From NCBI GenBank assembly GCA_036172245.1, contig JAYWIR010000033.1:1426001-1490000 (forward strand): 64,000 nucleotides of DNA. The letters are read 5' to 3'. The DNA comes from Raillietiella orientalis. Lineage: Eukaryota. Made by a program: the position numbers and the translations under genes. How positions within the stretch are numbered: position 1 is the stretch's first letter; every line of letters starts with the position of its first letter. Under the pieces are notes generated by a model. It made no database searches. It was not told the DNA's origin and saw only the letters and a list, made by a program, of their open reading frames with translations. This document shows, one piece after another, positions 10,932 to 16,900 of this stretch.

Positions 10932-13900
10932 GTAAGACGATGTCATATTTAGCGTAATCAAATATTGCAAATCAGCCTCTCTCTCTCTCTCTCTCTCTCT
11001 CTCTCTCTCTCTCTCTCTCTCTCTCTCTCTTCAACAGTCATTTTGACTATTTTGTTAACGTTTTCACGTCACACAAAAAAGCTGTTTCATAGCAATAACT
11101 TACTGTGAATTGTTCAGCAGTTCCACGTCTATGTCCGTGAATCATAGCTTAACCATAATCTGAGCAGACTTCACAAAAAATGCATCTGTTGAAATTTCCG
11201 ATCTTACCACTGGGGAATCGAATTGCGTAATGCGAAATTGCACGTGTCTTCTTCGGAACTCCCTTTCATTGAATGAGGAACTTTGTAATGATGCAGAATT
11301 AACGAAATCAAGGCTTCAAAGCATTTTACAGATTTTGAACGAATGCACACGGTCGAAAAAGGGAAAACTTGAAACAAAAAAGGACCACTGATGATTCGTA
11401 TGATTGGAAAGATAAAATAAAGACAAACACAAGTAGAAGATATTGATGTGAAATCTGCAAAGTGATGATAGAGACGAAAACTTTTTTCACACTGTCATAA
11501 ACCTTTTGTTTGCCTTTGTTGTTTTTTTTGTGTGTGTTTTAATAATTCTATCAGATTAATTGCAAACTAGAAAAAAAAGGTTAGGTAAAGAGGGGGGTGT
11601 TTTCTAAGAAGGGCATATGATGGTAAGATGAGAAGAAATGATAAATTGACATGGTTATAACTACCATGAAGGCTATGAAAAGTTGTAAGTACCATGAATG
11701 GCTTCTGTGATTGGAAGGAGAAATCTAGTCCAAGTTGAACGAAGTCGAACGGAATGGCGAAATGAGTCCCCATAATGTTGTTGTGGCTAACATGGTTCCA
11801 GCATCAAGCGGTCCCGGGGGATGCAAGAAGGAGGGTCCCGGGGCAGACAGTGAGTCGCAATGATGGCACTGGCAGTAAACAGTGAGGTCTGCAAGTCAAA
11901 ATGCATTTGCTGCATAGGCAGATAGTCTGAAGTTTGCAAGAGTGCTGCACTAATGATGACGGTGTGTGCTCACAAGGAAAAGATGCTGTTTCTCAGTTCA
12001 GTGAATCCATCGCAGTTGCATAGACTTGAGCTCCTAGTTTTTCGACTGGCCAAATATCCAAAACTGCGCGTGTATTCTTTTTGTTTCATCCAAATTTTGC
12101 ATTTTCGTGTGAAATCCATCCCATTTGTTATGAGTCAAGAAAAGTAGATTCAGAAATTCGATTTTCCATTTCCTACAAACGTGGATATATGGGGCTACAA
12201 CGAAAACCACTCGTGATGGCTTCTTAGTAGTTTTTCTTCTCAAACTTGTGTTGAAGAGTGACCTTTTCGCTCAGTAAATCGTGGTTCCATTCCGTTCAGT
12301 GCTCTTTTCAAACACTCTGGCGCTTCCCGTCCACTTACAACATCTCTGTGAATGACGGCCCCCAGGCGATTCACGTCCATGTCCTGCAGCAGCTTTTCGG
12401 GATGCTTGACGGGGCTGGACTGGGTGCCCAGGTTTTCCACGATGTTCCAGTGCTTCTGAAACTCCTGCCCGAGGTGCAATGGTGATTCAAACGGGGAAAC
12501 CGAAGCAGTTGCATTACCCTTTAGGAAGGTGTGTTCCTGTGGCGGTAGGGAAGAAACAGCTGATCTTCCGGTCTTTCGTGGAGTTCCGGTTTCCTTCCTG
12601 TCGAAAACTAGGCTTCGCTTCTTTGCCCGTCTGTCACGCGAGTTTCTGGAGGTTCCTTTCGGTTGACGAAATTTGTGTTCTCGCGCTCTCCATTTTTGTT
12701 CTTGTTCTGGTTTGTTTCTTCAAGAAGCAACTCGGGTTTCGTTCCCGTTGCTGGACGGAATTGCGGACCTCCCAGCGGATCCACACAGCTTTGCCTGTCT
12801 GACGATTAGATTAGAATTTGTCCCGCACATTCGAACGAGAGATCAGTGTGCCCTTCTATGGTAGGAAGTTGTACAGGGTTCCAGAATGAAAAGGGAAATC
12901 CCACTTTATGATCTCGAAATCACCTTTCTGTCATTTCTTATTGGGGCATTCCGTTCGCTAGGTACTCTGAAACGTAATTTTCTTTTCCTTGAAAGGAGGG
13001 ATTTTAAGGGTTCTTCCTAAATTTTGTTTCCTGAATTTTTTTTGTTTTTTTGCTTCGTGTTCGCTAAGCATCTGATAGACTTTGTTGTTTTCTCGTTTTG
13101 TTTGGTTTCTTTGTGGTGCTTCATGTGTGCTAATCGGTTGGATTCGTTTCGATCCTTATTTACCTTTGAATTTTGTGCCTGATTATGACAGCGCTGAAAT
13201 GGCGTTGGTACCTGTGTTTTCTGCCACGTTGTGTTTTCATCTCTGTGTTTGTAAAGTTTGCAAGGTTTTCCATCTCTGCTCTCTCGGGTACACACATTGC
13301 CATCGGTAGTTCAAACTCACCAGCGCAGGTGTGTTTTTCTTCTGCTGTATGGACTTTTGAAACAGCACGGGAGCTGGTACACCAATCGGGTCGCTGTTGG
13401 GTCATCACTATGGCGAATTCCTTACTTGCAGTTGGTGCAACTGTTCGTGAACTGGATTTGTTTGCAGTTGTGCGCCATTTTTTCCCTTCTTCCTCTTCTT
13501 TTCTTTGAGTTTACCTGTTGGCTGTCTGTTTGCTCGTGTTCTGTTACTTCTGTTACACGTGCACTTCATCCGCTTCCCTCCTTCATGTTCTTGGTTATGA
13601 TATCGCTGATGTTTTTGCCATCAATCTCGTGGATACACGCACACACCGTTACATCAGGAAAACCGCTTTGGTACATTCATTAGATGCCGAAATCTTGAAT
13701 GCATGCTGCGAATCAGATCAGCGGAGCAGGCGAGAGTACCTACAAAATAGCAGAAGTAGGCATAAAAACCGAAACTTCTAAAATGCCTTGTTCCCACCTC
13801 CTGCATCCATTGAGAAACTTGGGGACTGAAATACCATAATTTTGTGTGCAATCTTGGCCGGTTTTCGTGGGTCTTGGACAAATCGGATGAATGAGCAGCT

Positions 13901-16900
13901 AGGGATGAAACTAATTACCGGAAACCTGGATTTGACGCAAGAGGCGAAAATCGTGAATGTGCGATTGAAGTGGGATTATGAATTCGTGATGAGAGTAGGT
14001 AGGTAGATGGGGATGCTGCAGTGATTTCCGAAACTCAGCAGTTAGCTTATTCGGCGGAAGGATTTGATTCACGCGAAACGATTTTTGGTATTTTTTCTCG
14101 ACTTGTTTTTGCACGTAAACAGTGTTCCCTGGGTGCATTTATTTTGCTCGTTTGATGCGTTGCTATCGGCATCCTCCCTTCGTGCTGCCATTGACATTCC
14201 ATCGCGCCAAAAAGCTTCCCGTTGATGCAGTGGAGTCTGATGGAGGTTAGATGGACTTGATTCATCCTGGTTACGTGCAGTCGGCTGAAGTCGCGATCGT
14301 ATGCTTATTTATTTCGTTGGAGTGTGGTATTCCAATCACCTTTGGCATTAAAATAGGGGGTGGATTAGTTGGCCGTAGCAGATACTCGTCGTGCGCGTGA
14401 TGGGACGGCAAGAGCTGCCGTGGTTCAAATCCCCTGCTGTTCCCTGCACTTTTCATCAGGACTCATTCGATTATGGATCCCTTGCATGTTCTATCATCCG
14501 TTCTTGTTTCCGTATGTACTCGTGTCAAGAGCACGCTGTCATGTTTCGAACTTACCGGTTCCGTATCCGCTGCGACCTCATTTTGTGAATAATCAGCATG
14601 TCTGTGGTTTCACGTTTGTCCATTGCAGCTTTGTGTTTTAGACGAAAGCAGCAAAAGTGCGGTGTCCGGCGAATCGAAAAATAAACCCCCGCAGCCCGCC
14701 CAGCAAATTTTCAGCCCACCCCCTTCGAAGCCTCCTTTTCGAATATCGGAGTTCCGCTGGTCTCCCGTCCACCAGAAGATGCTTTCGGACTTGCTCTTTT
14801 CCATCGAGACGGACGTGCAAGTTTGGAGAAGGTAACTGTTCGCAGTTCGGGTCTCAGGTTTCCGTGCTCGCCTCGATCTGGACAATCCTCCCCGGCTGTT
14901 CCCCGTCGTCGGAAAACAAGAGCCCCGCGATCTTCCTTTCTCGTAGCCGATTCCGGGAGCCAGCGGTTGCTTGCGGAACGAGGGGAATCCGCCGGGTTTC
15001 GGGATCCTTACCTAACGCCTCTGCTCGAGATCTGCTCGAAGCTGTAGGTGGTGGTTATGATGGGAATAATCGAGGAGCTTGCGCACTTCGAAACTGATGG
15101 GAAGGCGCGCGAGCTTTCGAGCGCCGTTGTGCACATCGAGCACGGAGTGAATTGTGTTGAACGCTTTGCTTTTCATCTTATTCATTCGATGCTTCGAAAT
15201 TTTTTCCTCTCCAGTCACTCGAGCAAAACCGTTCTGGATTTCGTGAACAACACGGAAAACGCCGTGTTCGTAATGAACGCCGTTCACGTCATTTCCCAGC
15301 TGGCCGACAACCTGATCATTTCCTGCGGAGGTCTTCTGCCCTTGCTGGCATCCGCCACCTCGCCCAGCGTAAGGAAGAAGCGAGATTGCCGCGTTTGGAA
15401 CGTTTTCCCCACTCGTTTTGCACTTCAGTACGAATTGGACGTCGTGGAGCCCACCCAAGGCTTGTCCGTTGAGGTGGCCATTTCTTTCGTCCAGCGCTTG
15501 GTCAACCTGGTCGATATACTGGTGTTCGCTTCATCCCTCAACTTTGCCGAGCTGGAAGCCGAAAAGCACATGTCCAGCGGTGGGATCTTGCGCCAGTGCC
15601 TGCGTTTGGTACCGCCGTGTGCTGCTCACACGCGAGTTCCCTGGTCCCTTGCGTTTTTCAGGTTTGCATGGTGGCGGTGCGTAACTGCATCGAATGCCGG
15701 GAGCGATGTCGGCCCTACTGCTCTCTCCAGAGTGGTGCGAAGGACTCGGAACTTTCCAGCAACAAGAAGAGCCACCTCCTCTCCCTGATCAAGGGCGTGC
15801 AGGCTTCGCCTCAGGTACCTCTCTCCCCCCCTCCCCTTCTCCTTGGAAAACCGGCTCGGGAGGCGGATCATCGCTCACGTTCCCAGAACATCGTGGAAAA
15901 CCTGGGCACCCAGTCCAGCCCCATCAAGCATCCCGAAAAGCTGCTGCAGGACATGGACGTGAATCGACTGAGGGCCGTCATTTACAGAGATGTTGTAAGT
16001 GGCCGGGAAGCATCCGCGTTTTTTTTTTTGCCTTTCCGGTTTTCCACGGCGTCATTAGGAGGAAGAGAAACAGGCTCAGTTTCTTTCCTTAGCTGTAGTG
16101 TACTTCATCTCGGTTCTTATGGTCTCCAAATACCGCGACATCTTAGAGCCTACCGATCTGCCGTCCACGTTGTCTTCCAGCGGAAACACCGTGCTACCCT
16201 CCGGTAAATGCGGTTGCTGTTGTTTTTCTTCTATCGATGTGTTCCCTGTGCTCGTCCTTTCCTCGATCGTAGACCTGGGCTTTCTGTCTGCATGGTTGTT
16301 GGGTGTTGCCGGTGCATGCGAGGTCAGGAGTTTTGTGCGTTGTTCGGCTGTCTTCCACCCTCACCTTGCTGCTCTTCTGCTTGGCTCGTTTTGGTTCACC
16401 CTCGTGGTCCTTGCGCATGCGGCTTTGCTCGCCTCCCCCCTTTCGTCATGCAGCGGCATGTCTCCCTTCCCCTTCCTGCCCCGATCTTCCTCTTCATCTG
16501 TTGCGCGCACCTTCTTCATCTGTCTCTGACACCTTCGTTTCTTTTCACGCCACTTACCAGGCTCAGTGAGGAAACGAAACTGGAGTCGAGTATCTAGTGG
16601 TAGGGCTGGAGGGCGGGTGAGCTGACCACGTGCCTAACGTTGCTTTTTTTTTTTTTTTTTTTTGTGTGTGTATGGCAGATGCGGACAATCCTCACCAGCC
16701 GGATCAGGGCAAGAGGCTCGAAGAGAAGCCGGAAAGAGGTTCCGTTTACGCGCAGGCAGGACGCGGGAGCAACCCCCCCTGCCTCTCGACGCGAAAAAAA
16801 TTTCCGTCTTCCCAGGATTCGAACAGCATCCCCAAGTTCTCCCTGGAAAACGGCTGGACCGAAGTGAACCTGGACGAGGGCAAGTCGATGGACATGGATT

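Follow-up and report, generated by a model that had tools for sequence, protein, structure and literature searches.

Why does a single gene change from AT-rich and poor in CpG to GC-rich and dense in CpG partway along its length? In the 64,000-nucleotide stretch of DNA that we analysed (the window), an arthropod neurobeachin gene (NBEA) makes such a switch. The initial annotation described the switch as sharp, placed it at about 14.6 kb and suggested that methylation state, with an unmethylated domain around the nested gene mab-21, had shaped the codon usage of the host gene. Coordinates are given in Table 1.

Table 1. Features of the NBEA locus, in window coordinates.
Feature	Position	Strand	Remarks
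NBEA	1125–40056	+	Colinear domain series and tblastn
NBEA 5' exons, AT-rich CpG-depleted compartment	1–10931	+	ConA-like region, DUF4704; first mapped exon 1125
CpG o/e change-point support interval	10722–12180		2-lnL; best 11039
Transition intron	10932–14641	+	Donor GTAAG at 10932, acceptor AG at 14640–14641, phase 1
Perfect (CT)27 microsatellite	10977–11030	+	Directly 5' of CpG change point
Inverted degenerate copy of downstream NBEA exon 3' part	12322–12447	-	121/126 nt identical to 15886–16011
NBEA 3' exons (linker, DUF1088, PH_BEACH, BEACH, WD40), GC-rich CpG-normal	14642–40056	+	tblastn, Pfam
Source segment of inverted copy	15886–16011	+	Exon 3' end, donor GTAAGT at 15995, 17 nt of intron
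mab-21 host intron of NBEA, 13.6 kb	18317–31950	+	GC 0.62, CpG o/e 1.07
mab-21, intronless CDS, 365 aa	23970–25064	-	Pfam Mab-21 and Mab-21_C
(CG)10 run	37755–37774	+	Sequence match
GC-rich CpG-normal flank	40057–64000		GC 0.60, CpG o/e 0.94; without recognisable protein-coding gene
(CG)9 run	43028–43045	+	Sequence match

We found that NBEA carries the domains of a BEACH-domain protein gene in colinear order (DUF4704, DUF1088, PH_BEACH, BEACH, WD40) and that tblastn against a 3176-aa homologue (P0262) is colinear over residues 96–3176, with residues 96–922 matched in the 5' part and residues 1464–3176 in the 3' part. DUF4704 profile positions 11–485 span 8218–10075, and the 3' part has Pfam matches to DUF1088 (1.4e-35), PH_BEACH (2e-10), Beach (six ORFs over profile positions 1–276) and WD40/NBCH_WD40. 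The gene begins upstream of the window. At the transition intron, an A at 10931 is followed by the donor GTAAG, and TTTTAG, ending at 14641, is followed by an A at 14642. These sites and the continuous phase-1 codon confirm the earlier statement that the reading frame runs on in phase across the intron without exon overlap. The intron itself has a GC of 0.44 and a CpG observed/expected ratio (o/e) of 0.88; we found no conserved extra exon on its plus strand (10932–14641), no Pfam family in its three longest ORFs and no codon periodicity above 0.40 in any of its 117 windows.

The transition intron also contains an inverted copy of part of a downstream NBEA exon (126 nt, 96% identity), which carries the donor site and 17 nt of the source's intron. 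The copy encodes Gly and His where all 11 orthologues aligned there have Arg and Tyr. In this neutral copy, only five positions differ from the source; four of them are G or C, and the two differences that orthologues polarise are both weak-to-strong in the copy. The predicted duplex of copy and source has an energy of –256.8 kcal/mol, as compared to –65 ± 6 kcal/mol for 50 shuffles, and the copy could pair with the downstream exon and its donor site in the pre-mRNA.

Sliding windows, CpG o/e and per-exon GC3 all display the switch from AT-rich to GC- and CpG-rich sequence that had been noticed within this one gene. GC per 1-kb window is 0.30–0.37 from 1 to 11 kb versus 0.48–0.70 from 15 to 64 kb, and CpG o/e is 0.19–0.72 from 1 to 11 kb versus 0.68–1.26 from 12 to 64 kb. 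GC3 in the exon cores is 0.34 on the 5' side (287/846 codons; CpG o/e 0.35) and 0.80 on the 3' side (980/1230 codons; CpG o/e 0.93; Fisher p = 1e-99 for the pooled counts). NBEA introns have GC 0.32 and CpG o/e 0.43 on the 5' side, and GC 0.58–0.62 and CpG o/e 0.92–1.19 on the 3' side. Earlier hand counts of GC3 were reproduced (13/42 in 4132–4257 and 35/36 in 17507–17614), and the (CG)10 and (CG)9 runs already described were both located in the GC-rich part, with no such match in any of 100 shuffles. When conserved-core amino acids were compared with orthologues, there was no shift to the residues encoded by GC-rich codons (Gly, Ala, Arg, Pro) in either half. The compositional boundary inside NBEA is real.

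The description of the switch as sharp holds for CpG and fails for GC. A change-point fit places a step in CpG o/e, from 0.43 to 1.00, at 11039 (~11.04 kb), so that the CpG edge is found at the 5' end of the transition intron, beside (CT)27, instead of at about 14.6 kb. The GC change is a ramp with a logistic midpoint at 13.7 kb and a 10–90% span of 11.7 kb, and GC is still climbing at 18 kb. GC goes up from 0.30 to 0.37 while still in the CpG-poor part, so the gradient in GC does not depend wholly on the putative methylation edge. The CpG step and the foot of the GC ramp coincide within ~1 kb. There is a second CT repeat, (CT)18.5, at 17464–17500.

From 1 to 10.9 kb, the CpG deficit is accompanied by an excess of TpG (1.30) and CpA (1.28), and GpC is not depleted (1.23), which is the sequence pattern of a methylated compartment. 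Beyond 11 kb, CpG is 0.88–1.19 and TpG/CpA 0.77–0.99, and the combination of CpG deficit with TpG/CpA excess is absent from ~11 kb onward. The suggestion of a gene-body-methylated 5' part and an unmethylated 3' part is thus consistent with a CpG-decay footprint (0.35–0.43, TpG/CpA 1.3) that ends at ~11 kb; however, it does not explain the shift in GC and codon usage. At exon sites unable to form CpG, GC3 is still 0.42 in the 5' part versus 0.78 in the 3' part, which argues against methylation state as the cause of host codon usage. At intron sites unable to form CpG, GC is 0.36 (5') versus 0.57–0.59 (3'), and such sites in the GC-rich introns and flank together have a GC of 0.57–0.60. In a neighbour-dependent simulation of CpG decay (a simple equilibrium model with one parameterisation), sequence starting from GC* = 0.61 reached GC 0.52 at o/e 0.51 and GC 0.50 at o/e 0.34, the floor under extreme CpG decay was GC 0.47, and the observed pair (GC 0.32, CpG o/e 0.43) required a baseline GC* of ~0.36. 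CpG decay is insufficient for the GC gap. The remaining difference at non-CpG sites and the simulated floor of GC 0.47 call for a second force that raises G and C; GC-biased gene conversion acting on unmethylated DNA is the most likely candidate. GC is raised beyond CpG dynamics at all weakly selected site classes, the compositional pattern expected of gene conversion. Gene conversion had been offered as an alternative to methylation; gene conversion or another weak-to-strong bias is indeed required, in addition to the putative methylation and not instead of it.

The GC-rich, CpG-normal block extends over at least 53 kb, reaches the end of the window and includes 24 kb past the end of NBEA. 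In this flank, no Pfam family was found at or above the cut-off in 123 ORFs of at least 100 aa or in 178 ORFs of 55–99 aa (the latter gave two sub-threshold matches), and of 791 windows, just 6 had a codon periodicity above 0.40, all of them within 62.2–63.5 kb. Because all site classes are affected, including the gene-free flank, the GC shift is regional and does not reflect codon selection.

The mab-21 ORF belongs to its family by matches to PF03281 (Mab-21, 1.2e-44) and PF20266 (Mab-21_C, 3e-27), and the protein is 73–85% identical to the named animal mab-21 proteins listed, with up to 85% identity to insect mab-21. The gene has a GC3 of 0.95, a CpG o/e of 0.88 and an AATAAA at 23769–23774 on the minus strand, and it lies wholly within an NBEA intron in antisense orientation, between exons that end at ~18316 and start at ~31951. 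Conserved nesting of Mab21 in an Nbea/Lrba intron was reportedly described by Tsang et al. in 2009. The nesting is ancient (PMC1784063), and the arrangement here is the same, with mab-21 on the opposite strand in the intron that immediately precedes the PH_BEACH exon; the earlier reports concern synteny and are not known to describe a compositional effect on the host. The coordinates place mab-21 inside the CpG-normal block, as the initial annotation had it. Its picture of a domain around mab-21 fits less well: the block starts 13 kb from the 3' end of the gene and reaches 39 kb or more beyond the 5' end, and because it runs to the window end, including the 24 kb beyond NBEA, it is neither centred on mab-21 nor limited to it.

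The junction is also spanned by 16 related NBEA loci, and none of them shows a 5'/3' composition switch. The switch is therefore lineage-specific, and it is not a general consequence of this gene architecture; these 16 loci all end before the host intron, without mab-21, and so give no direct test of the domain idea. When 12 junction-spanning related loci were ranked by identity (one per near-identical set), the ranking was similar for both halves of NBEA (Spearman rho 0.54, p 0.07), and the same locus (L004) was closest in both.

Taken together, these data make it probable, with some reservation, that NBEA lies across the border between two long-lived compartments of chromatin and sequence shaped by germline methylation and GC-biased gene conversion. 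That the 5' part is methylated, that gene conversion raised GC and that the two are causally coupled are inferences from the composition. Both exons and introns of the 5' 11 kb would be methylated in the germline, and deamination of 5-methylcytosine would have led to loss of CpG and gain of TpG and CpA. From ~11.0 kb, the DNA would be unmethylated in the germline, leaving CpG at expectation. A persistent fixation bias from weak (A/T) to strong (G/C) would act in this unmethylated compartment, most likely from GC-biased gene conversion tied to recombination, and would produce high GC at weakly selected sites (~0.6 in introns and flank, 0.8–0.95 at synonymous sites), with the methylated part held near a baseline equilibrium GC of ~0.36. 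The shared start of the CpG and GC boundaries would fit methylated DNA being a poor substrate for the initiation of recombination, as inferred in bees and termites, and the GC ramp may represent a conversion bias whose intensity is graded by distance into the compartment. Typical conversion tracts are far shorter than the ramp of ~12 kb, and uniformly recombination-hot unmethylated DNA does not predict the shape of this ramp. A T-over-A skew of –0.16 to –0.24 is present only in the CpG-normal, presumably unmethylated, transcribed part and is unexplained by methylation and gene conversion. The model also gives no reason why gene-body methylation should spare the 3'-most 29 kb of one transcription unit.

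This escape would be accounted for if the block were a methylation-free (e.g. Polycomb-type) regulatory domain of mab-21 that overrides the transcription-coupled methylation of the host's 3' part, so that the passenger indirectly sets host codon usage; we regard this as a possible but clearly less probable explanation. The position of mab-21 inside a block of matching composition agrees with it, as do the GC maximum of the window (0.66–0.70), which is found at 25–28 kb on the 5' side of mab-21, a flank that lacks recognisable genes, as a regulatory desert would, and the age of the nesting (PMC1784063). However, the block is asymmetric and its end is not reached, the highest GC3 of NBEA (0.9–1.0) is at 38.7–40 kb, away from mab-21, and in the related loci no shift is seen as far as the exon that precedes the host intron; something else would still have to raise GC. 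In a fuller version, which seems doubtful to us, mab-21 would impose a methylation-free domain on the 3' 29 kb of its host and expose the exons there to GC-biased gene conversion, such that half of NBEA's synonymous usage is rewritten (GC3 0.34 to 0.80) and the protein is unchanged, with pairing of the inverted copy in the pre-mRNA possible in addition.

It is unlikely that the locus marks an isochore-like edge unrelated to methylation, arising from a subtelomeric or small-chromosome recombination gradient or from a switch in replication timing or mutation bias. The breadth of the GC ramp, its start within the CpG-poor part and the continuation of the block past the window would suit such an edge, as would the increase of GC3 towards chromosome ends in several insect orders (PMC10978632); however, the methylation boundary would then coincide by chance with the foot of the ramp to within ~1 kb, and a link between CpG o/e and recombination has been published (PMC4406589; PMC12047536). 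We give little credence to a transcript boundary, in which a short germline 5' isoform of NBEA ends in the transition intron and is methylated, and the full-length (neuronal) transcript is not made in the germ line, leaving the 3' part unmethylated. Read-through of the donor at 10931 does meet a stop at 10955–10957, and the first plus-strand AATAAA after the exon, at 11416, falls within the CpG change-point interval, but AWTAAA is frequent (89 matches in the window) and a transcript boundary alone does not explain the GC shift. Least credible is a chimeric assembly of two unrelated sequences mis-joined, for example, at (CT)27, which adjoins the CpG step and is echoed by the second CT repeat. 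In a chimera, all statistics would step at one point and the halves would have differing affinities. Instead, GC shows no step at (CT)27 (0.39 before, 0.35–0.39 for 600 nt after) and ramps over ~12 kb, the two NBEA halves are complementary, ordered, in phase and without overlap, related loci rank broadly alike for both, and the diverged copy of a GC-rich-side exon in the transition intron links the two sides. The rearrangement once listed as an alternative is unlikely.

Under the two-compartment reading that we favour, one conserved gene, transcript and protein under uniform purifying selection would be split between two mutational and epigenetic regimes. The NBEA locus would then be a clean natural experiment, in which expression level, gene age and protein constraint are constant and inferred methylation and GC pressure vary. 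With methylome and population data, it could apportion invertebrate GC heterogeneity between CpG decay and gene conversion, and could show if methylation determines where recombination-permissive DNA ends and if the domain of a nested regulator overrides host gene-body methylation.

The Ciona methylome is a mosaic of methylated and unmethylated domains with sharp transitions (Suzuki et al., 2007, in the review PMC8286816). The likeness to NBEA lies in the two compartments, the sharp CpG transition and a CpG-poor compartment made of gene-body DNA including introns; in contrast, the Ciona domains match transcription units (PMC8286816), whereas the NBEA edge falls inside one unit, comes with a 30-point GC difference and bounds a compartment whose methylation is predicted from composition. 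In the honeybee, recombination correlates with GC and with coding-sequence CpG o/e, and its suppression by germline methylation has been put forward there as a hypothesis (PMC4406589); among termite genes, no predictor of recombination is stronger than CpG o/e (PMC12047536); and insect GC landscapes have been argued to be shaped by gene conversion (PMC10978632). NBEA would resemble the honeybee and termite systems, in which sequence poor in CpG (methylated) recombines little and has a low GC, and high GC accompanies strong conversion bias, but those are genome-wide correlations across genes or 100-kb windows (PMC4406589; PMC12047536), and the contrast here is within one gene. Honeybee non-coding CpG o/e is ~1.7 (PMC4406589), whereas the CpG-poor part of NBEA includes introns. 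Bees and termites are not close relatives of this organism, whose best mab-21 identity to a named species is 85%. Vertebrate isochore boundaries occur inside or beside genes, and they are alike in being regional GC changes over several to tens of kb in which introns, flanks and GC3 move together. As compared to mammalian boundaries as generally described, the amplitude is larger here (non-coding GC 0.31 to 0.62, GC3 0.34 to 0.80), and the change coincides with a CpG o/e step in a genome of the mosaic type. The locus is a striking example of known forces and not a new mechanism.

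In the neurobeachin gene (NBEA), we found that coding and non-coding sequence change composition together across a single intron (10932–14641, the transition intron). To define exon cores, we searched with 23 reference proteins by tblastn and took the codons lying under at least four ungapped HSPs. Before 10931, exon cores (n = 16, 846 codons) have a GC3 of 0.34 and a CpG observed/expected ratio (o/e) of 0.35, as compared to 0.80 and 0.93 in exon cores after 14642 (n = 27, 1230 codons; Fisher p = 1e-99 for GC3). The 5' introns have a GC of 0.32 and a CpG o/e of 0.43, the 3' introns have a GC of 0.58–0.62 and a CpG o/e of 0.92–1.19, and the 24-kb flank past NBEA has values of 0.60 and 0.94. 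TpG/CpA, the product of 5-methylcytosine deamination, is in excess (1.3) only in the 5' part, where GpC is not depleted. The initial annotation had described this change from counts by hand, and we recovered its GC3 values for two exons (13/42 and 35/36 codons), its (CG)10 and (CG)9 runs (37755–37774 and 43028–43045) and its in-phase junction (donor A/GTAAG at 10931/10932, acceptor TTTTAG/A at 14641/14642, phase 1 kept).

By tblastn, a 3176-aa NBEA homologue (P0262) is colinear with the gene from residue 96 to its last residue; the first NBEA residues fall upstream of the window. The Pfam domains occur in the order DUF4704, DUF1088, PH_BEACH, BEACH, WD40, with DUF4704 profile positions 11–485 covered by 8218–10075. 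NBEA identities are alike against ticks, insects and crustaceans. The nested mab-21 is up to 85% identical to insect proteins, a value that no protein search exceeded, and a quick tree places it beside crustaceans in a group whose branching is unresolved (SH-aLRT 81, with no clade starred). We accordingly assign the locus to an arthropod, probably one of the pancrustaceans. The nesting of mab-21 in NBEA is known and ancient (PMC1784063). The AATAAA positions suggest that the 3' UTRs of both genes are short. A marginal full-length match to the U2 snRNA model lies in an NBEA intron (33331–33544, minus strand; 46.5 bits against a gathering score of 46); it may represent a pseudogene or a U2 gene that has diverged.

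Features of the NBEA locus, in order of position
Feature	Position	Strand	Details
NBEA gene	1125 (at least) to 40056	+	tblastn with P0262, and Pfam
(CT)27 microsatellite	10977–11030		Perfect; coincides with the change point of CpG o/e
Inverted exon copy	12322–12447	-	121/126 identical (96%) to 15886–16011
Source of the copy	15886–16011	+	NBEA exon (3' part) together with the donor site and 17 intronic nt
(CT)18.5 microsatellite	17464–17500		Perfect; ends 5 nt ahead of an exon's acceptor site
NBEA host intron	18317–31950	+	13.6 kb; holds mab-21
AATAAA	23769–23774	-	About 200 nt past the mab-21 stop codon
mab-21	23970–25064	-	Intronless; Pfam Mab-21 1.2e-44, Mab-21_C 3e-27
AATAAA	40112–40117	+	About 56 nt past the last NBEA codon

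The two components of the switch have different shapes. For CpG o/e, the change is a step at 11039 (0.43 before, 1.00 after; 2-lnL support interval 10722–12180), directly 3' of the last 5' exon and the (CT)27 repeat. In contrast, GC climbs as a ramp, from 0.30 at 1–7 kb to 0.33–0.37 at 7–11 kb, 0.35–0.39 to 11.6 kb, approximately 0.45–0.5 to 14.6 kb, 0.55–0.6 to 17.5 kb and 0.6–0.7 past that; a logistic fit places the midpoint at 13.7 kb with a 10–90% span of 11.7 kb. Thus, the word "sharp" used in the initial annotation fits CpG and not GC, and the edge that it placed at 14.6 kb lies, for CpG, at the 5' end of the intron instead. Could the boundary be a mis-joined assembly? This is unlikely: GC has no step at the (CT)27 repeat, the two sides complement each other as halves of one gene, in order and in phase, the same related locus is closest for both halves with broadly agreeing rank orders of the other loci, and the transition intron holds a copy, now diverged, of an exon that lies on the GC-rich side.

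This copy is inverted and lies 3.4 kb upstream of its source. It is degenerate, with Gly and His where 11 of the 11 orthologues aligned across both positions have Arg and Tyr. Copy and source differ at 5 sites, 4 of which are G or C in the copy, and both sites that can be polarised with orthologues are changes from A/T to G/C in the copy; with five differences in all, this is a small hint that its base changes agree with GC-biased gene conversion. The predicted pre-mRNA duplex of the two arms has an energy of –256.8 kcal/mol as compared to –65 ± 6 for 50 shuffles, so the arms could pair as a long duplex. Possible roles for the copy are a complementary sequence guiding RNA editing, a splicing modulator or only a repair scar. 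When we searched the transition intron for extra NBEA exons with permissive tblastn (E up to 5), only the inverted copy and noise were returned; its three longest ORFs have no Pfam family, and 0 of 117 windows have codon periodicity.

Downstream, the GC-rich, CpG-normal block that begins near 11 kb reaches the window end and is therefore at least 53 kb long. In the flank past NBEA (40–64 kb), no Pfam family reached the cut-off in 123 ORFs of at least 100 aa or in all 178 ORFs of 55–99 aa (two matches were sub-threshold), so Pfam gives no sign of a protein-coding gene there. Codon-like periodicity is present in 71% of known exonic windows; past NBEA, 6 windows out of 791 have it, each of them at 62.2–63.5 kb. 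These windows (62191–63480), the sole codon-like GC periodicity downstream of NBEA, include a short minus-strand ORF (62341–62517, GC3 0.83) with a motif that resembles one typical of reverse transcriptases; Pfam has no match for this ORF. The region may be a retroelement relic that now has the local composition.

To compare the locus with its relatives, we used 29 related NBEA loci from metagenome contigs, 16 of which (approximately 11–12 independent sequences) span the homologous junction. The switch is present in none of the 16. The difference between the 3' and 5' parts ranges from –0.02 to +0.08 for GC (+0.29 in the window) and from –0.15 to +0.03 for GC3 (+0.46), and is at most +0.26 for CpG o/e (+0.57). 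The composition switch is lineage-specific. The closest related locus (L004, 16449 nt; 70% identical in one half and 80% in the other) is AT-rich throughout (GC 0.31) with a uniform CpG o/e of 1.29, which puts NBEA there in a very different compositional regime.

The initial annotation had proposed that an unmethylated domain around mab-21 covers the 3' part of NBEA. Such a domain is possible, and would explain how gene-body methylation spares half of a transcription unit; however, mab-21 is off-centre in the block, with the near edge 13 kb away and the far edge, not reached at the window end, at a distance of at least 39 kb, and NBEA GC3 peaks at the 3' end of the gene. The cross-species comparison gives the domain no support, although the 16 loci, which stop ahead of the host intron and have no mab-21, speak to the switch and not to a mab-21 domain elsewhere. 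Methylation by itself does not explain the shift in GC and codon usage. Where neighbouring bases exclude CpG, GC3 is still 0.42 in the 5' part and 0.78 in the 3' part, and intron GC is 0.36 and 0.57–0.59, so approximately three quarters of the GC gap persists at sites without a possible CpG. When we simulated neighbour-dependent substitution with CpG hypermutability added to a background with an equilibrium GC of 0.61, GC fell to 0.52 at a CpG o/e of 0.51 and 0.50 at 0.34, with a floor of 0.47 even at 0.12; the observed pair (GC 0.32, CpG o/e 0.43) requires a background equilibrium of approximately 0.36. Methylation alone is thereby ruled out as the maker of the shift, and a second force, one that sets a different balance of A/T and G/C bases in the two parts, is required. 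This second force is not translational selection, since introns, flank and synonymous sites are all affected. We did not see drift of the 3' half toward residues with GC-rich codons: in conserved cores of both halves, the Gly, Ala, Arg and Pro share does not exceed the orthologue's share for most references, and the GC1/GC2 difference between halves therefore reflects domain composition.

Our best reading is that two edges coincide at the boundary, one of methylation and one of a GC-rich compartment that gene conversion has driven. Germline methylation would have caused CpG decay in the 5' part, GC-biased gene conversion would have raised GC where the DNA is unmethylated, and the coincidence is probably causal. 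The literature supports such a link: recombination in honeybee correlates with GC and coding CpG o/e, and a suppressing effect of methylation on recombination was proposed (PMC4406589); among termite genes, recombination is best predicted by CpG o/e (PMC12047536); and insect GC landscapes are argued to be shaped by gene conversion (PMC10978632). The coincidence of the two edges does not account for the length of the ramp, which is far above a conversion tract, for the GC rise that starts within the CpG-poor part, or for a T-over-A skew. This sense-strand skew is confined to the NBEA introns that lie in GC-rich sequence (10932–40056), with values of –0.16 to –0.24, and is absent from the 5' introns (–0.01) and from the flank (–0.02). 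It looks linked to transcription because it ends at the 3' end of NBEA, although this transcript lacks it in its CpG-poor half. Taken together, these data show that the intragenic boundary is real, strong and lineage-specific. The locus is a good natural experiment and a striking example of forces already known; we do not regard it as a system of a new kind.
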